Origin: Candidatus Ruthenibacterium avium
GTDB taxonomy: Bacteria; Bacillota; Clostridia; Oscillospirales; Ruminococcaceae
Direction: 5' to 3'
Assembly (NCBI GenBank): GCA_019118905.1
Contig: DWYA01000077.1
Span: forward strand, 4,956-68,955
DNA length: 64,000 nt
Shown here one piece after another: positions 187-7,027 of the stretch. Positions within the stretch are counted from its first letter, which is position 1; each line of letters opens with the position of its first letter. The notes under the pieces are model-generated. The model searched no databases, had not been told where the DNA came from, and saw only the letters and a list, made by a program, of their open reading frames with translations. Made by a program: the position numbers and the translations under genes.

Positions 187-1090
187 CCTCAAAGCACGGG
201 TCACTGCGCAGCAGCTCCGGCAGGCGCAACAGCCCGGCGTCCTGCCCCTGCACGGCGGCGGTAAAGCTTTTTACATACCAGTCGATGGCGTAGCGCACCC
301 GCATTTTTTTATTCTCGAACCGGATAACATGGTTCACCAGTGCAATCAGGCTGCTGCGGTTCGATTTCGTCAGCGTTTCAAATAATTCGTCACAATGACT
401 GTCCACCCAGTAATCCACCAGCGGGCGCAGCGGCTCCATCAAATCGTCCGCCAAATTAAAGGCGTTGCCGCGCCCCATGTGATGGATGCCCAGCGCGCAG
501 TTGTAGCCGTATGCCGCCAGCGTTTTGCACACCGCCGAGCGCAAAATGGTGTAGCCGTAGTTCAAAGCGGCGTTGGTAACGTCGTCATCGCCGCGCGTAA
601 AGCCTGCGCCGAACAAGGCGCGGAAGTGGCGCTTTGCCGCCTGTGCTTCGCGGTTGCCCTTGTCGCCGGGCAGTACCGCGGCGGCGAGGGCTTCCAGCTC
701 CTGCACTTTTTCGGTTTTCACATGGCAAAAGCGCAGGGCGCGTGCCTGATTTGTAATTTTTGCCTGTACAATGCGCTGCCAAACCAAGTCTTTCCATTCC
801 TGCGTCCAAGCCATTTGCGCCGAAAGCACGGCAAGCGGCTGGTAGTGTGCATTCAGGGGAAGCAGCTGGGCGGTGGGCACATGGCTCTCGTCACAAAACA
901 AAATGTGAACGCCCGCCTGTGCCAGCGTGGTAAGCACCGCCACGCTAAGCATGGCGCGGCGGTTATCAATCACCACGGAATACAAATCGCCCACCGGCAC
1001 ACGCGCTTCCTGTTCCTCGGAACAGACATACAGCCAGTTGTTTTGCAGGGTTATTTTTTCGCCGGCTTGTACAATAAGGGTGCGCCACAT
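170..1090 (-). CDS. cas1: Type II CRISPR-associated integrase Cas1
   Basis: 306 aa with NREAQAA, N..LNYGY.ILR and GIHH...NAFNLADDLMEP.RP motifs, so catalytic E/H/D appear present. Lies between cas9 and cas2; the start overlaps the cas9 3' end by 40 bp. Confidence 0.96.
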   Translation of the reverse strand: MWRTLIVQAGEKITLQNNWLYVCSEEQEARVPVGDLYSVVIDNRRAMLSVAVLTTLAQAGVHILFCDESHVPTAQLLPLNAHYQPLAVLSAQMAWTQEWKDLVWQRIVQAKITNQARALRFCHVKTEKVQELEALAAAVLPGDKGNREAQAAKRHFRALFGAGFTRGDDDVTNAALNYGYTILRSAVCKTLAAYGYNCALGIHHMGRGNAFNLADDLMEPLRPLVDYWVDSHCDELFETLTKSNRSSLIALVNHVIRFENKKMRVRYAIDWYVKSFTAAVQGQDAGLLRLPELLRSDPCFEDEQDG

Positions 1091-4000
1091 GCCACTTCAC
1101 CTCCCAGCCTGCCCAGCAGCGACACGGCGTATTTGCGCACAGTGTCTTTTTTGCCGATGCTCATGGCTTTTTTTCCATCAAAGGGTGCATTGCCCATGAT
1201 ATAGCAAAGTCGATTTTCGTTGATATTAAACACCGACTTATAAAACCCGCGGTATTTTTCCTCGCCGTTGCTTTTTGTTACAACAACATATTCATATGGG
1301 AACAGGTACATCACATGTGCGGCATAGTCTGCCGGGGGCGGCGTTTGAAGCACCAGCTTTTTGCCCTCTCGCTTCACGGCTGCTTTCATAATGCCGCGCA
1401 TTTGCAGCTCGCCTTTCTCGCTGCGGTATAGCTCCACACACCAGTATTCGCGCACATCCAGCGCGGTTTTTCCGCTTTCGGGCGTTTCCTTATAATACGG
1501 GTTGCGCCACTCGTCGCCCGTCAGGGTCACTTTGCGCACAATTCTGCCTTTTTGGGTGACAAATTCCGTTTTGCCCTGTGCCTTTAAAATCTCGCCCAGC
1601 GGGTCGTCCTCTTTTTTGCGCGGCAGGGCAAACGCGGCTTCCAGCGATTCGCGCAGGTCGGTGTCATCGGTGCAAAGCTTGTCCAGCTCCTTGGCTTTCA
1701 GGCTCAGCACGTCGCGGCGCTTCATTTCTACCGCGCCTTCCGGCGTTTGCTTTATCAGCAGGGCGTTTTGCGAAGTGACGGCGCCGCGGCAGCGTGTGGA
1801 CGTTTTATAGCTCACCAGCGGCGGCGACAACCGCGCCACAAAAGCCTCGTCGTGGTAAAAGTTGCGCAGCTGGTTGTAGTAGCGCTCCAACAGTTCGGCG
1901 CGTGTGGGAACGGGCGGCACTTCCTCGCCGTCCTTTTTGGCTTGCTTGGCGCAAAGCTCGGCTTCTTTCCGTGCGGCGTCCACGTCAAAAAAGCGCACGT
2001 CTACCTCCAGCCCCAGCGCCGGGTGCAGGGCGGTGCAGCCGTCTTTGCGGCACAAAATTTCCGTCGAAACGCGACGCGGCATGTGGTAATGGTCTTCCAG
2101 CGCGTTGATGCACTTTTCCATCGTTTGGTAATATTCCGGTGTTTTCTGCTTGCCTGCGGCGTAGTACATGCGGTTTAAGCGCAGTTTGTTTTCCATCAGC
2201 ATGGAGGTGGCAGGTGTGATATGTGCGATGACAACGGCATCCACTGCGTGGTGCAGCTGGGTTTCCGTGCGGGTGGCGTCCTTTTCGTCTTTGCCCCACG
2301 TCTGTTTGTTCAGCCATTGCCGCCGCAGGGAGGAGGTAAGCTGGCCTTTAACACCAAACACGGGCGTGCTGCGCGCACCGGGGGCAAATTGCAGCGTTTC
2401 GCTTAAATAGCGCACCAGATATTTTGTAATATAGCGCGTGTCGTTTAAATTGCGCGATTTCCACTCGGAAAGCAGCTCGGTGTTGTCCAAATTGGGCAAG
2501 GTTAAGTAGCGGTAGGTGCGCTCAGAAATCTGCTTGTGTTTCAGCATGTCATTAGCACGCACACGCAGGCGGTCGCACGCGGCGGCATCCAGATACATTA
2601 AAGGCACGGTTTGCCCCTTGCGGCGGTTTTCGTCGGTATACACCAGCGCTTTATTGTGAATGGTATCGTCCAAAATCAGCGAAAACGGCACAATGTGATC
2701 CACCTCAAACTCCTGACGGCGTGGGTTCAGCGCGGTGACTTTATCAATGGGCTTGTCGGAATACAGGCAGTGCCAGCCCTGCCGCTCGCCCAGCCGATAG
2801 CGCAGGCGCATTTCGCCCGTGACAGCAGTTGGCTCAATGCCCAGCAGCGCGGCAACGGTTTCGGTGATTTGCTGGTTGTTTTTTTCGTTTTCTTTCTGAC
2901 GGTTGTCAATATTTTGGCGTTCTTCAAAGCTGTTGCCCACTTCGCTTGCCACCTCTACATTGATGGCGTAGGGTGCTCCATAGGCTTGGATGACGGCATT
3001 GATAATTTTTCGCGTTTCGTTCAAGCTGCGCATAACGACAGCATTTTTGGCAAATTCGGCATCAGGCGAAAAGGCGGGAAGCAAGCGGTGTGTGCCGCCC
3101 TTTGCCATAATGGGGGCGTTGTCGAGTTTTGACTGGAAATGGCCATACAGCTCGCCGCCTTCAAATGCCGCAATCGCACCCTTCATATATTTTTCCGAAA
3201 CGGCAGCCGTGCCGGAAAAATTTTGCCCGGCAAGCTTGCGGATGGCGGCTTCATTCAGTTCCGGCACAGCCCGCAGCGCCCGCAGGCGGCGGCGCGGGGT
3301 GTGGTTTTCGCACACAATTTTGCTGATGCGGTTTAACAACGTGTCGGGCGCGGTGTAGTCCTCGCCGATGGCAGAAAGCCAGTCAATGCCGCACTCGTCC
3401 AGCAGCTTTTTCATCGGCTTTAAAAACTTGAGACATTTGCCAAGCGTTTCCTGCTTTCCGCTTTCTTTGGCTGTGGGCATATTGACCCCGGTATCGAATT
3501 TTTTTGCCAGTTTGGTGACATCGTTTTTTTTCAGTTCGCCTTGTTCCAATGCTTTTTGCAGCAAAGCGCGTGCCAGCTCGGGGGCAAGCGTTACCTCACC
3601 CGTTTCCAAATTGGTGTAGCAATACTGAGAAAGTACGTTCACTAATGAGTAAATGTCGGCAAGGGGAGAAGCGCGGAAGGCGCACGGTTCATCCCGGTAA
3701 TACCGGCAGTTGCCCAGCGTGTCCAAAAAGCCTTTGTATTTGCGCATGGGGTCGCCCGCTGTGCCGGGGCCGTCCTCAAAGTCGCGCTGGTTCAGCAAGA
3801 TTTCCTCTAAAATTTCGGCGTTCGTCATGGGGCTGGCAAGCGGCTCTTTCCCGGCGCGTTTTTTGACTGCCGGGTTGGGCGCGAGTAAAATGGGGTAAGT
3901 TTCGCCTTGCTTTTGCAAAAGCATTTGCACCTCTTTGCGCAGCAGGTCACGCCCTACCAAGCAGCGCTCGGTTACATAAGGGTGGTTGAGGTAAGCGCGC

Positions 4001-4557
4001 TGTTCGCCACCGGTGGGGCAGGCAAAAGCGGCGTCACGCAAAAACATTTCGGCGGCGGTGCGGTAGCCGCCCTGCTCCATCAGTCGGTTGACGCGGCTGA
4101 TGCCCGCCAGCTCTTGCTCGGCTTCCTCTTTTTCGGCTTTTGTCATATCCTCGGTATCGGTTTCAAAATAGTCCTGATAACCGCGGTGATTGCTGATATG
4201 AATGAGGCATGCTGCCAGCTCGCACGGGGAAAGCGGTTCGTCCAAGCCTTTGACACGCAGAGAAAGCGGGTCGGGATGAGGAGCTTCAAAGTAGCGGGAA
4301 AGCTCGTCCAGCGTTAAAAGCCCCATGCGCTGCAAATGCTGCTTCACACGCATTTTGCGGTGACTGCGCCGCCGAGTAACGCGGCGGGCGGCACGCTGTG
4401 CGCGGCGCTCCTGATTTTTATTGCATTTATCTTTGGGATTTTCCGAGGAGTCGAACAGGCGCACGCCAAAATCTTCAATCCAGTGTTCCCCCTCATTTTG
4501 AACCACTGCCCAACCTACCGAGCCAATGCCAATATCTAAACCAAGCGTGTACTTCAT
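1051..4557 (-). CDS. cas9: Cas9, compact class (1168 aa); subtype II-C versus small II-A cannot be resolved in this window
   Basis: RuvC-I LGLDIGIGSVGWA, Arg-rich bridge helix RRAQRAARRVTRRR, RuvC-II NVEVASE, HNH EVDHIVP..HNKAL...NRRKG, RuvC-III HHAVDA. All catalytic residues appear intact. Confidence 0.97.
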   Translation of the reverse strand: MKYTLGLDIGIGSVGWAVVQNEGEHWIEDFGVRLFDSSENPKDKCNKNQERRAQRAARRVTRRRSHRKMRVKQHLQRMGLLTLDELSRYFEAPHPDPLSLRVKGLDEPLSPCELAACLIHISNHRGYQDYFETDTEDMTKAEKEEAEQELAGISRVNRLMEQGGYRTAAEMFLRDAAFACPTGGEQRAYLNHPYVTERCLVGRDLLRKEVQMLLQKQGETYPILLAPNPAVKKRAGKEPLASPMTNAEILEEILLNQRDFEDGPGTAGDPMRKYKGFLDTLGNCRYYRDEPCAFRASPLADIYSLVNVLSQYCYTNLETGEVTLAPELARALLQKALEQGELKKNDVTKLAKKFDTGVNMPTAKESGKQETLGKCLKFLKPMKKLLDECGIDWLSAIGEDYTAPDTLLNRISKIVCENHTPRRRLRALRAVPELNEAAIRKLAGQNFSGTAAVSEKYMKGAIAAFEGGELYGHFQSKLDNAPIMAKGGTHRLLPAFSPDAEFAKNAVVMRSLNETRKIINAVIQAYGAPYAINVEVASEVGNSFEERQNIDNRQKENEKNNQQITETVAALLGIEPTAVTGEMRLRYRLGERQGWHCLYSDKPIDKVTALNPRRQEFEVDHIVPFSLILDDTIHNKALVYTDENRRKGQTVPLMYLDAAACDRLRVRANDMLKHKQISERTYRYLTLPNLDNTELLSEWKSRNLNDTRYITKYLVRYLSETLQFAPGARSTPVFGVKGQLTSSLRRQWLNKQTWGKDEKDATRTETQLHHAVDAVVIAHITPATSMLMENKLRLNRMYYAAGKQKTPEYYQTMEKCINALEDHYHMPRRVSTEILCRKDGCTALHPALGLEVDVRFFDVDAARKEAELCAKQAKKDGEEVPPVPTRAELLERYYNQLRNFYHDEAFVARLSPPLVSYKTSTRCRGAVTSQNALLIKQTPEGAVEMKRRDVLSLKAKELDKLCTDDTDLRESLEAAFALPRKKEDDPLGEILKAQGKTEFVTQKGRIVRKVTLTGDEWRNPYYKETPESGKTALDVREYWCVELYRSEKGELQMRGIMKAAVKREGKKLVLQTPPPADYAAHVMYLFPYEYVVVTKSNGEEKYRGFYKSVFNINENRLCYIMGNAPFDGKKAMSIGKKDTVRKYAVSLLGRLGGEVACGAPLLYKPAKK

Positions 4558-4575
4558 GTTTTTTCATCCTTTCTG

Positions 4576-4604
4576 TTGACCTTTCCAAAGAAATACGATA
4601 TAAT
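4576..4604 (+). promoter_or_regulatory. Sigma70/SigA promoter, divergent from cas9, probably driving the tracrRNA
   Basis: TTGACC (4576-4581), 17 bp, TATAAT (4599-4604). Points into the anti-repeat/tracr sequence. Confidence 0.8.
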
Positions 4605-4626
4605 ACCCCTAGAGTTCAGATTATGA

Positions 4627-4699
4627 TGTGTCGGTTTATCTATATCCATCAGAGAAACTTATTTTGAAAACTGTGTCAGTTTATCAATATCCATCAGAG
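4627..4699. repeat. Two direct 28-bp copies (26/28 identical) of the CRISPR anti-repeat, 45 bp apart
   Basis: tgtgtcggtttatctatatccatcagag (4627-4654) versus tgtgtcagtttatcaatatccatcagag (4672-4699). Confidence 0.92.
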
Positions 4700-4799
4700 T
4701 TCTGAGATAAGGCCGTTGTGCCGAAGGGTATGGTGGTAACCCGGCTTTTGCCGAACCCACTTTTTTGTTGTTTTTTTGCCGCGCTTTGCGCGGCTTTTT
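4673..4799 (+). ncRNA. tracrRNA (anti-repeat, nexus, 3' hairpins); a longer form could start near 4611
   Basis: 36-nt anti-repeat at 4673-4708 (reverse complement ATCTCAGAACTCTGATGGATATTGATAAACTGACAC, resembling the S. aureus repeat start GTTTTAGTACTCTG). Followed by AAGGC-cgttgt-GCCG, like the St1/Sa/Nme nexus, then GGGT/ACCC and GGC-TTTT-GCC stems and U tracts. Confidence 0.82.
4778..4799 (+). terminator. Intrinsic terminator ending the tracrRNA
   Basis: gccgcgc-ttt-gcgcggc followed by TTTTT; U tract on the plus strand only. Confidence 0.75.
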
Positions 4800-4911
4800 C
4801 TTTTGCTCCTATTTTTTTAAAGGAAAATATTTCCTGTTTTATTATACCAAATGAATTGTACGATAAAAACACCTGCAAATAAAACAATCAAAATTTGTGC
4901 ATTTACAACAA

Positions 4912-4943
4912 AAACCGTGGATGTCGTTTGACATCCACGGTTT
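4912..4943 (-). terminator. Intrinsic terminator after the galE-nucleotidyltransferase-nahK operon
   Basis: 14-bp stem aaaccgtggatgtc/gacatccacggttt with T-rich flanks. Confidence 0.75.
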
Positions 4944-4986
4944 GTTTCTGCCGCATACGCCGGTGGGCGCTGCGGACGATATTTTT

Positions 4987-6099
4987 TTAATATTTTGCTG
5001 CGATGGCTTTCATCTGCTCCCAGCAGTTTTCCATGTCGCTTACCAGCTTGAACTGGGTGCGGCAGCGGTCGAGGTTCTGGCCTTCGCGGTGTACGCGGAA
5101 ATAGTGGTCACCCTCGAGATAGTCGGTGAGGAAGCGGATGCCGCATTCCAGCGTCATCAGCTTAGCGCCCCAAGGCAGATATTCTTTCTCTGCGGGGGTC
5201 AATGCATCACCAGCGGCTTCCATGAAGCCTTTGGTGTAGATTTCATACAGCTCAATGTCGAAGTTTACCTTAGACAGGTCTTTCTCGTCCTCTGCGCTGT
5301 GGTTGGCACCAAAGCGGATGGAGTCGCCGTAGTCATTCAGTGCAAGGCCGGGCATAACGGTGTCGAGGTCGATGACGCAAATGCCGGTGCCGGTGGCTTT
5401 ATCCATCAAGATATTGTTCAGCTTGGTGTCGTTGTGAGTAACACGCAAGGGAAGCTTGCCGGCCTCCAGCAAATCCATCAGCACAGCGCAGTCTTTTTCA
5501 CGCGCCAGCACGAAGTCGATTTCCGCCTGCACGTCTTTTGCACGGCCACATGCATCGGCATCCAATGCCTTTTTAAAGTTGGCAAAACGGTTGCGTGTAT
5601 CGTGGAACTTGGCAATCGTTTCGTGCAGGGTAGAAGCGTCATAGCCGGAAAGCAAGCGCTGGAAATGGCCGAACGCTTTAGCGCTCTCATAGAACTGCTC
5701 GGGCTTTTCTACACTTTGCAGGCACACGGTTCCCTCAATGAAGGGATACACGCGCCAGCAGCCGCCCTCACTGTCACGATAGAAGTTTTTGCCTTCCTTG
5801 GTGCGCAGAACCGTCATGGTTTCGCGTGCGGCATCGCCGCCGTTTTTCTCAATGATGCTGCGCAGGTAATCGGTAACGCCCACAATGTTTTCCATCAGGC
5901 CATCAGGATCGGTGAAGGTATTGGTGTTGATGCGCTGGAGAATGTAGCGCACACAGTCGCCTTCTTCATTTTGTGTATAAACACAAAACGTGTCGTTGAT
6001 ATGTCCTTTTCCGTAGCGCACTGCGCCGACGATTTCGCCGCCGAAATCAAAGCCGGTTAAGGCTTGGGACAGAGTTTCTTCCGCTTTGCAAAGTGCCAT
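4987..6099 (-). CDS. nahK: N-acetylhexosamine 1-kinase-like phosphotransferase (APH/choline kinase fold)
   Basis: HNDTKLNNIL and VIDLDTVMPG motifs; sits in a GH112 locus. Start moved to ATG 6099 (MALCKAE) because of the GGAGG RBS; the ORF track starts at 6162. Confidence 0.75.
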   Translation of the reverse strand: MALCKAEETLSQALTGFDFGGEIVGAVRYGKGHINDTFCVYTQNEEGDCVRYILQRINTNTFTDPDGLMENIVGVTDYLRSIIEKNGGDAARETMTVLRTKEGKNFYRDSEGGCWRVYPFIEGTVCLQSVEKPEQFYESAKAFGHFQRLLSGYDASTLHETIAKFHDTRNRFANFKKALDADACGRAKDVQAEIDFVLAREKDCAVLMDLLEAGKLPLRVTHNDTKLNNILMDKATGTGICVIDLDTVMPGLALNDYGDSIRFGANHSAEDEKDLSKVNFDIELYEIYTKGFMEAAGDALTPAEKEYLPWGAKLMTLECGIRFLTDYLEGDHYFRVHREGQNLDRCRTQFKLVSDMENCWEQMKAIAAKY

Positions 6100-6103
6100 T
6101 TGC

Positions 6104-7027
6104 TTATGCCTCCCACAAGTTGTCCGGGTACAATCCGGCTTTTGTTTTCTCCGCGATGGCATTTACCACAACGGGCTTATCCTCTTTGTAAGTAACGCCA
6201 TACCATTTGTCGCCGCTGCGCAGTACGCGGACGTCGGCTTTACCTTCTTCAATCAGCTGGCTGACCACACTGGGCAGGAAGTACTCGCCCTTCAGCGGAT
6301 TTTTCACCAATGCTTCATCGAGGAATTTGGCAAAACGAGCCTGAGTCTCTTTCACAAAGCTCTCAGTGAAGCCCCACAGGTTCATGGAAACGATGCTGTC
6401 CGGGGAAACGTCGGTCCAAGTTGCGCCGTCGTCCTCAGTGAAGTGGATGCCGCCCTCATAAGTCTCAATTTTGGTGCGCTCGGTAACGCTGGCCAAAGTG
6501 CCGTCGTTATTCTCTACGCACACGCCGCGGGCAACGCTGCCGTGCTCGGTAACGGTGTTCTTGAGCAGATAGCCCACCATGGCGTAGCTGTATTTCTCGC
6601 CGTCCTCGTGAGTGGACAGGTAGTTGTAAATTTCGCGGAATGCCTCGGGGCCATAGTAGTCGTCGGCGTTGATAACGGCAAACGGTGCGTCAATCACATC
6701 GCGTGCAGCCAAGATAGCGTGGCTGGTGCCCCAGGGTTTGGTGCGGCCTTCCGGCACGGTGTAGCCTGCGGGAAGGTCTTCCAGCTGCTGATAAGCATAG
6801 CGCACGTCCATGATTTTGGAAAGACGGTCGCCGATGGCTTCTTTAAAAGCGTCCTCAATTTCGTGCTTGATGATGAACACGACAGTTTCAAAACCGGCGC
6901 GGCGTGCGTCGAAAATGGAATAGTCGATGATGATTTGGCCGTGGTTGCCCACCGGGTCAATTTGTTTCAATCCACCGTAGCGGCTGCCCATACCGGCTGC
7001 CATAACAACAAGAATCGGTTTTTTCAT
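6104..7027 (-). CDS. Sugar-phosphate nucleotidyltransferase (NTP-transferase, GT-A fold)
   Basis: N-terminal LVVMAAGMGSRYGGLKQ signature; PWGT.HA and VINADDYYG motifs. Confidence 0.85.
   Translation of the reverse strand: MKKPILVVMAAGMGSRYGGLKQIDPVGNHGQIIIDYSIFDARRAGFETVVFIIKHEIEDAFKEAIGDRLSKIMDVRYAYQQLEDLPAGYTVPEGRTKPWGTSHAILAARDVIDAPFAVINADDYYGPEAFREIYNYLSTHEDGEKYSYAMVGYLLKNTVTEHGSVARGVCVENNDGTLASVTERTKIETYEGGIHFTEDDGATWTDVSPDSIVSMNLWGFTESFVKETQARFAKFLDEALVKNPLKGEYFLPSVVSQLIEEGKADVRVLRSGDKWYGVTYKEDKPVVVNAIAEKTKAGLYPDNLWEA

Follow-up and report, generated by a model that had tools for sequence, protein, structure and literature searches.

Natural single guides are formed by some long trans-activating CRISPR RNAs (tracrRNAs), which are known Cas9 autorepressors with a short guide (bioRxiv 10.1101/2020.05.21.102756). 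In the long form from Streptococcus pyogenes (tracr-L), residues 14-19 pair with residues 113-118 and are preceded by an 11-nt guide (Workman et al., bioRxiv 10.1101/2020.05.21.102756). The 79-nt extension of its upper stem is dispensable (bioRxiv 10.1101/2020.05.21.102756). RNAs of the tracr-L type are established in type II-A systems, and type II-C examples were reported recently; in each case the guide is directed to the cas9 promoter, and the published criterion for them requires 11 nt or more of match to the region upstream of cas9 (bioRxiv 10.64898/2026.06.01.729453). Sequestration of Cas9 by single-guide RNA (sgRNA)-like molecules that have no promoter target has been proposed for phage vsgRNAs (bioRxiv 10.64898/2026.06.01.729453). 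In type II loci, repeat-like elements and mini-arrays have been tallied rather than dissected (bioRxiv 10.1101/2023.03.03.530964). The subject of this report is the leader of a tracrRNA gene beside cas9, at positions 4611-4671 of a 64,000-nt stretch of DNA from Candidatus Ruthenibacterium avium (contig DWYA01000077.1, here C55, positions 4956-68955; assembly of 2.27 Mb). This stretch is referred to as the window.

The region 4611-4671 is best explained as a conserved leader with structure, carried by the one primary tracrRNA transcript that is evident in this type II-C system. It is probable that the leader closes into a fold that has no guide, and that it carries a second anti-repeat, copy 1, which tracks the CRISPR repeat. 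The explanation that we prefer for the whole is a self-masked long tracrRNA that is gated by CRISPR RNA (crRNA), to which we give a little less than an even chance. The tracrRNA gene is composed of the following features.

4576 to 4604, plus strand: tracrRNA promoter, with -35 TTGACC (4576-4581), a 17-nt spacer, and -10 TATAAT (4599-4604); consensus score 11/12

4615 to 4628, plus strand: R5', a repeat-sense segment at the extreme 5' end of the transcript, seen in minimum-energy folds

4628 to 4654, plus strand: copy 1, the second anti-repeat (GUGUCGGUUUAUCUAUAUCCAUCAGAG)

4655 to 4673, plus strand: linker, in which AAACU (4655-4659) closes the copy-1 hairpin and 4664-4673 mimics the 3' end of the repeat

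4673 to 4708, plus strand: true anti-repeat of the tracrRNA (AR2), complementary to the array repeat

4709 to 4804, plus strand: 3' part of the tracrRNA, with nexus AAGGCC..GCC, hairpins, and a T-tract at ~4762-4767, from the sequence and a terminator scan

4778 to 4794, plus strand: second terminator hairpin with its own T-tract, from the terminator scan

On sequence grounds, the region 4673-4804 is a genuine tracrRNA, divergent from cas9, because its anti-repeat matches the array repeat and is followed by AAGGCC, hairpins, and T-tracts. The CRISPR array lies directly left of the window (~C55:3930-4760), and its 36-nt repeat reads GTTTTGGTTCTCTGATGGATATTGATAAACTGATAC in crRNA sense. Pairing of 4673-4708 with this repeat gives a G:U-rich lower stem of 7 bp, a UU/UU internal loop, and an upper stem paired at 27/27 positions. 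Failure of the array repeat to match the anti-repeat had been named beforehand as grounds for abandoning the original prediction, and the two do match. The tracr core GATAAGGC..GCCG.AGGGTATGGTGGTA is kept in orthologs. Ortholog metatranscriptome contigs, which are unstranded, finish at the first tracr terminator, one of them with adapter read-through. An Rfam scan of 4000-5400 gave sub-threshold noise with no tracrRNA family and is uninformative.

The same order of promoter, leader, and tracrRNA is found upstream of cas9 in 20 loci, 15 of them distinct, whose Cas9 proteins are 38-50% identical to that of the window. These distant loci were fetched for their Cas9 homologues (38-50% identity) and through a pattern scan of metagenomes; their sources include Faecalibacterium sp. 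An192 and chicken, dog, and human gut samples. Individual loci carry L numbers below. The promoter, kept in 15/15 loci, consists of TTGACA, a spacer of 16-17 nt that is unconserved in sequence, and TATAAT or TATACT. It is followed by 9-10 unconserved nt, CUUAGA...UGAUG (R5'), copy 1, (GA)UAAAC, a variable linker, the true anti-repeat, and the nexus. Since the layout is shared by loci with such distant Cas9 proteins, the extra copy is no recent neutral duplication. That escape, which the original prediction had left open, is refuted by the retention of the copy in orthologous loci. The extra anti-repeat is thus non-random and conserved, is part of the tracrRNA leader, and was found in every orthologous locus examined.

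Copy 1 was originally recognized as a direct repeat of 4627-4654 and 4672-4699 with a 45-bp period, and the two segments are indeed identical at 26/28 positions. Judged from its pairing potential, copy 1 behaves as a working anti-repeat. It pairs with the array repeat at 26/27 positions in the window, and with the upper-stem part of the cognate repeat at 25-27/27 in the 10 loci whose array could be read, which hold seven repeat variants. In L038, L039, L042, L053, and L054, copy 1 reaches 27/27 versus 25-26 for the true anti-repeat, and in L056 it is copy 1 that matches the repeat (GCUGAA with UUCAGC) whereas the true anti-repeat does not. Compensatory transversions are also observed, with CUGAUAC changed to CUUAUAC in the repeat and GUCAG to GUAAG in copy 1. 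Where copy 1 differs internally from the repeat complement, the change is mostly A-to-G, which keeps G:U pairing on the tracr strand only. Copy 1 was also considered as a direct-repeat relic overwritten by gene conversion from the array, which is disfavoured: a signature of its own, GUGU versus GUAU in the repeat complement, is conserved, and copy 1 is therefore not simply overwritten by the array.

Close relatives with the locus are few. A DNA search of 60 relatives found it in only one sister species, and an exact-pattern search of 400 genomes of the order returned none except the window's own genome. The sister is a metagenome-assembled genome of Candidatus Ruthenibacterium merdavium, with a Cas9 that is 88% identical and the same leader. 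Nucleotide identity between window and sister is 86.9% in cas9, 88.5% in the intergenic DNA beyond the tracr gene, 96.7% in the leader (4611-4671; 2 differences in 61; binomial P = 0.018), and 100% in the true anti-repeat. These identities are counted as support for purifying selection, which probably acts on the leader. They bear on an evolutionary alternative, by which the leader would be a functionless leftover of the origin of this tracrRNA by repeat/anti-repeat fusion, homogenised by gene conversion. As such a leftover would be, the leader is pieced together from fragments of repeat and anti-repeat, and the fold of the window is not thermodynamically special. Order, spacing, and pairing are nevertheless retained in loci whose Cas9 is down to 38% identity, conservation of the leader exceeds that of cas9 and the neighbouring intergenic DNA in the closest pair, and copy 1 keeps its signature. 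We regard a functionless leftover as very unlikely.

Two further observations concern these loci. Among the window, L035, L038, and L053-L057, Cas9 is only 38-46% identical, 32-36 of the 36 nt of the CRISPR repeat are kept, and the tracrRNA nexus is nearly unchanged; the RNA components are therefore far more conserved than the protein. In L041 (7700-7830), the array has decayed to one or two degenerate repeats, and the tracrRNA leader, including copy 1, is intact.

The leader is predicted to fold back on the true anti-repeat. Each predicted transcript was folded independently for minimum energy. The helix between R5' and the anti-repeat is present in 14/15 minimum-energy folds, and the full three-helix topology in 12/13 folds of the first set. 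In the window, the helices are these.

4615 to 4620 with 4701 to 4706, plus strand: lower-stem mimic helix, UUCAGA paired with UCUGAG

4624 to 4628 with 4692 to 4696, plus strand: start of the upper stem, UGAUG paired with CAUCA

4633 to 4641 with 4651 to 4659, plus strand: copy-1 hairpin

4664 to 4673 with 4677 to 4687, plus strand: linker helix, UUGAAAACUG paired with CAGUUU.UCAA around the triloop UGU (4674-4676)

The linker mimic (4664-4673) thus pairs with the 5' half of the true anti-repeat, and the hairpin predicted for copy 1 has a loop of ~12 nt that is complementary to the CRISPR repeat. Across loci, the linker varies together with the true anti-repeat and not with copy 1. The paired linker and anti-repeat segments are AAACUG/CAGUUU in the window, ACCG/CGGU in L038, AAGCUG/CAGCUU in L046 and L053, and AAUUUAC/GUAAGUU in L055. 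Orthologs have CUUAGA:UCUAAG where the clade of the window has (C/U)UCAGA:UCUGAG, a double change from U-A to C-G (alignment columns 6/103).

Pairs were counted on a covariance-model alignment of the 20 loci. Paired cells amount to 85%, versus 36-56% when the partners are slid by 1-3 columns. Helix 1, between R5' and the anti-repeat, is paired at 94.4% (15 distinct sequences) and the triloop-proximal helix at 95%, the latter with 2 double-change pairs; double-sided changes are seen in 6 pairs of the whole structure. The covariation score is 0.154 versus 0.099 in shuffles and was reached by 0/500 shuffles.

This fold differs in detail from the one first proposed. A leader shaped like a single guide had been foreseen, and this shape is predicted, but it forms through other helices (4615-4628/4692-4706 and 4664-4673/4677-4687). 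The stem ATTTTG:UGAGAU, on which the earlier fold was built, is possible on paper, absent from the minimum-energy fold, and unconserved in orthologs. A third remnant of the direct repeat had been described at the start of the leader. Similarity between AGAGTTCAGA (4611-4620) and AGAGTTCTGA (4696-4705) does exist, but it does not hold as a direct repeat. A match of 10 nt at 90% between two copies is at chance level, the central position is always mismatched, and only 7/15 nt are accounted for. The similarity appears direct because UCUAAGA is nearly its own reverse complement. The putative remnant (4615-4628) is better read as a repeat-sense segment that would complement the 3' half of the true anti-repeat.

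The predicted start of the tracrRNA is A4611, and a purine stands at the 7th nt past the -10 in 15/15 loci. The distance from this start to R5' is 3 nt, or 4 nt in the window, and these nt are unconserved. With only 3-4 nt 5' of the lower stem, there is therefore no guide. The 12 nt upstream of the R5' overhang are the promoter itself. In a consensus-based scan for a plus-strand promoter-like site that could serve a short tracrRNA, none was found between 4611 and 4672, and none in two orthologs.

The original prediction had taken the region for a Cas9 guide module, with candidate guides at 4641-4660 on the plus strand and 4622-4641 on the minus strand. Neither has genome matches above chance, and the predicted transcript begins 3-4 nt before the lower-stem mimic in 15/15 loci; this part of the prediction is not supported. 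Four candidates were searched for seed matches in the 2.27-Mb genome, namely these two, the segment before the anti-repeat complement on the cas9 strand, and the 12 nt upstream of R5', and none gave matches above chance. A hypothetical guide from the cas9 5' untranslated region (UTR) was among the candidates that had no such matches. The leader has no stretch of 11 nt or more that matches the region upstream of cas9. On the minus strand, the description of a 36-nt repeat-like segment, a 17-nt gap, and a 5'-truncated copy is literally correct, but its reading as a mini-array with a guide is not upheld. The complement of copy 1 is without the lower-stem segment GUUUUGG, and the 17-nt gap is unconserved as a guide. 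The combination of lower-stem segment, guide, and target that marks small CRISPR-associated RNAs (scaRNAs) and mini-arrays was not found on this strand.

These results bear on the possibility that the leader, or a minus-strand mini-array, guides Cas9 to repress the cas9 promoter or another gene, as in S. pyogenes tracr-L or scaRNA. The topology is that of tracr-L, and tracr-L has been reported in type II-C. Against this stand the 3-4 unconserved nt before the lower-stem mimic with the promoter occupying the 12 nt upstream, the lack of seed matches above chance, the unconserved ATTTTG:UGAGAU stem, and the minus-strand copy that has no lower stem. Guidance of this kind is extremely improbable. 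Autoregulation may occur, but not via the S. pyogenes mechanism of a guide aimed at the cas9 promoter.

The self-masked tracrRNA that we prefer would work as follows. Two repeat-sense segments, R5' (4615-4628) and the linker mimic (4664-4673), would mask the true anti-repeat in cis. The masked RNA would close as a scaffold resembling a single guide, with a lower stem, a bulge, a short upper stem, and no guide. Copy 1 would form a hairpin within the "upper-stem extension" and expose its loop to the repeat. The closed form would keep the anti-repeat, plus any bound Cas9, inert. A repeat of the pre-crRNA would dock onto the exposed loop of copy 1, and a neighbouring repeat of the same transcript would then invade the masked anti-repeat. 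RNase III would cleave the long duplexes, and the leader would be removed. Through docking and invasion, the activity of the tracrRNA would thereby be gated by genuine multi-repeat CRISPR transcripts. The gating function of the leader is put forward tentatively, at less than an even chance. Taken furthest, the leader would be a natural RNA switch, in which the masked anti-repeat is opened only by multi-repeat pre-crRNA that has docked first on the second anti-repeat. Such a switch would provide two-repeat proofreading against the use of stray host RNAs as guides, and would tie Cas9 activation, and possibly (by way of face-to-face promoters) cas9 transcription, to the supply of crRNA; this we consider doubtful.

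Predicted accessibility is consistent with docking at copy 1. In the predicted ensemble, the probability of being unpaired is 0.62 for the copy-1 loop in the window and 0.75-0.96 in most orthologs, and 0.1-0.5 for the corresponding 12 nt of the masked anti-repeat. In 5/8 loci, a 10-nt window can be opened for 0.1-0.7 kcal in the copy-1 loop, compared with 1.6-4.1 kcal in the masked anti-repeat, and in these five a single repeat has the more favourable net binding energy at copy 1. The copy-1 loop is thus predicted to be the easiest landing site for the repeat in most orthologs.

The same numbers can be turned to another use of the fold. Here the guide-less single guide would sequester Cas9 in an inert state, abundant crRNA would displace the cis strands, and copy 1 would be a buffer or decoy for repeats. 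This alternative overlaps with the preferred explanation and differs from it in the role of copy 1. The closed scaffold has a lower stem, bulge, and nexus with an overhang of only 3-4 nt, copy 1 is decoy-like in being the better predicted binder of the repeat in 5/8 loci, and sequestration has a proposed precedent in phage vsgRNAs that have no promoter target. No separate promoter for a short tracrRNA is detectable, however, and the same molecule must therefore double as the working tracrRNA. A decoy also needs neither 27/27 complementarity nor a position in an accessible loop. Sequestration with a decoy is rated as unlikely.

Several points weigh against the crRNA-gated, self-masked tracrRNA and the fold beneath it. 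In the 20-locus alignment, pairing reaches only 65% in the linker helix and 79% in the copy-1 hairpin. The alignment contains few sequences, which are related to one another, and its fitting to the structure inflates the pair counts. In the window, the fold does not exceed dinucleotide shuffles in stability (z = 0.15 and 0.02), compared with z = -1.1 to -2.8 in orthologs; as evidence for the window's fold, the thermodynamic z-score fails at z ~0. Gene conversion among repeat, anti-repeat, and copy 1 could mimic selection for pairing. In three loci, the window among them, net binding is still better at the true anti-repeat. In the window and orthologs alike, the start site is given by promoter prediction alone. 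The step by which pairing would pass from copy 1 to the true anti-repeat is entirely conjectural.

The leader may also be read from the cas9 strand, where two promoter candidates are found.

4620 to 4648, minus strand: candidate cas9 promoter, TGGATA (4648-4643), 17 nt, CATAAT (4625-4620), scoring 9/12, with a predicted start at ~4613

4841 to 4849, minus strand: perfect extended -10 (TGGTATAAT) beyond the tracr terminators, found as a sequence motif

The nearer candidate spans copy 1 and R5', and its motif is unconserved outside the clade of the window. Its start at ~4613 on the minus strand would be face-to-face with the tracr start at ~4611 on the plus strand, with overlapping polymerase footprints. 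By their positions, such promoters would make initiation of tracrRNA and cas9 mutually exclusive on each copy of the DNA. RNA runs that contain the window are metagenomic or of very low depth, in the form of unstranded contigs; one metatranscriptome contig over the cas9 5' end stops at 4604. Ortholog RNA contigs, also unstranded and of low depth, extend unbroken from the 3' end of the tracr gene across its promoter and into cas9. They stop at the tracr terminators, short of the far extended -10. In 12/15 loci, the cas9 strand has a single perfect extended -10 (TGnTATAAT or TGnTATACT) at a distance of 244-329 nt upstream of the cas9 ATG. Transcription from it, if it occurs, would give cas9 a 5' UTR antisense to the whole tracrRNA.

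Each anti-repeat copy resembles the repeat when read on the cas9 strand, including an extended -10-like TGATAAACT. In 15/15 loci, one or both anti-repeat copies keep this motif in their complement; in the clade of the window, it is lost from copy 1. A recurrent A-to-G change (CAG to CGG or AGG) in one copy, in at least 3 lineages, removes the last T of TGATAAACT and retains G:U. The sites of this change are 4633-4634 and 4678-4679 in the window, with equivalents in L035, L038, L041, L042, L051, and L057.

These patterns suggest a role at the level of DNA, by which copy 1 would be a repeat-derived promoter or element of cas9 that faces the tracr promoter, so that transcription of cas9 and of the tracrRNA would compete. 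The motif is never destroyed in both copies, and the change that kills it in one copy keeps G:U pairing. TGGATA-17-CATAAT appears in the very clade in which copy 1 has lost the motif, and the contig end at 4604 is near the predicted start at 4613. The continuous ortholog contigs are counted in favour as well. A promoter, on the other hand, constrains ~9-12 nt and not a complementarity of 27 nt with compensatory changes. The pattern of never losing both copies is not statistically significant in ~8 lineages, 12/15 loci have the different extended -10 beyond the tracr gene, and the contigs have no strand and little depth. A role for copy 1 in the DNA is improbable by our estimate.

The locus to which this tracrRNA belongs has three cas genes.

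1051 to 4557, minus strand: cas9, 1168 aa, from the list of open reading frames (ORFs); NCBIfam TIGR01865 Cas9, E 1e-168

170 to 1090, beside cas9: cas1, type II Cas1 TIGR03639

Past cas1, truncated by the left edge of the window: cas2, from the ORF list

The genes are ordered cas9-cas1-cas2, and neither csn2 nor cas4 is present. The closest solved structures to the Cas9 of the window are chains of 1,082-1,095 aa, within the type II-C size range. An assignment to type II-C fits both the gene content and the size of the nearest Cas9 structures.

Directly upstream of the array, between cas2 and the first repeat in crRNA sense (~C55:4756-4800), is a conserved hairpin in which CCAAAAC pairs with GUUUUGG of the first repeat. 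The hairpin is also found at L035:8740-8775, L054:6170-6210, and L057:5600-5640. Its inner stem covaries across loci, with CGCAAGA/UCUUGCG in some and CACUGCAUA/UAUGUAGUG in others. Its role would be either to cover the lower-stem segment of the first repeat or to terminate cas2. Upstream of the CRISPR locus, a gene at 4987-6162 on the minus strand has only a weak match to CotS-family spore-coat kinase-like proteins (E 1e-5) and is ended by a strong terminator at 4943-4912.

This clade of type II-C loci from gut Clostridia (Ruthenibacterium, Faecalibacterium, and relatives) has kept the predicted single-guide fold, dropped the guide, and holds a second anti-repeat that co-evolves with the repeat. 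If gating is true, the leader would show how a tracrRNA stays inert until a real crRNA is present. It would then bear on the avoidance of non-canonical guides and on Cas9 toxicity, and would offer a natural template for conditional guide RNAs. If gating is false, the locus is still a clean example of the assembly of a tracr-L-type RNA from repeat and anti-repeat pieces.

No Cas9 tracrRNA with a second or duplicated anti-repeat came up in full-text literature searches, whose single match concerned type V-K. The closest known system is S. pyogenes tracr-L. In both, the tracrRNA gene is divergent from cas9 and has a long co-transcribed 5' extension, a segment near the 5' end mimics crRNA and pairs in cis with the anti-repeat on its lower-stem strand, the upper-stem loop gives way to a large extension, and pairing with crRNA would open the fold. 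Unlike tracr-L, which has a guide of 11-13 nt, the window RNA has only 3-4 nt, and neither a promoter target nor a separate promoter for a short form was found. The linker of the window also mimics the upper-stem strand, and the extension holds a second anti-repeat whose changes follow those of the repeat.

Phage vsgRNAs and RNA anti-CRISPRs offer a second comparison. The leader is like these in being an sgRNA-like RNA that, as modelled, may occupy Cas9 and not cleave, and some vsgRNAs have no identifiable target. Unlike them, the RNA of the window is encoded by the host in the cas locus, is the precursor of a working tracrRNA, and has an extra anti-repeat. With F. novicida scaRNA and mini-arrays (Shmakov et al. 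2023, bioRxiv 10.1101/2023.03.03.530964), the window shares a degenerate repeat-derived sequence beside cas9 in a type II locus. The scaRNAs are repeat-sense, bear a guide, and pair with tracrRNA in trans, whereas copy 1 is anti-repeat-sense and on the tracrRNA itself, with no guide or target found.

Repeat-embedded promoters are reportedly present in the type II-C arrays of N. meningitidis and C. jejuni (Zhang et al. 2013; Dugar et al. 2013). As in these arrays, the repeat of the window has an extended -10-like TGATAAACT near its 3' end. The candidate motif in the leader, in contrast, would drive cas9 and not crRNAs. In engineered toehold-gated or conditional guide RNAs, a strand in cis masks a segment of the guide RNA, and a trigger RNA opens it through an exposed toehold. 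By analogy, the leader would be a natural case of this design, in which the trigger is the CRISPR transcript and the toehold is the second anti-repeat.

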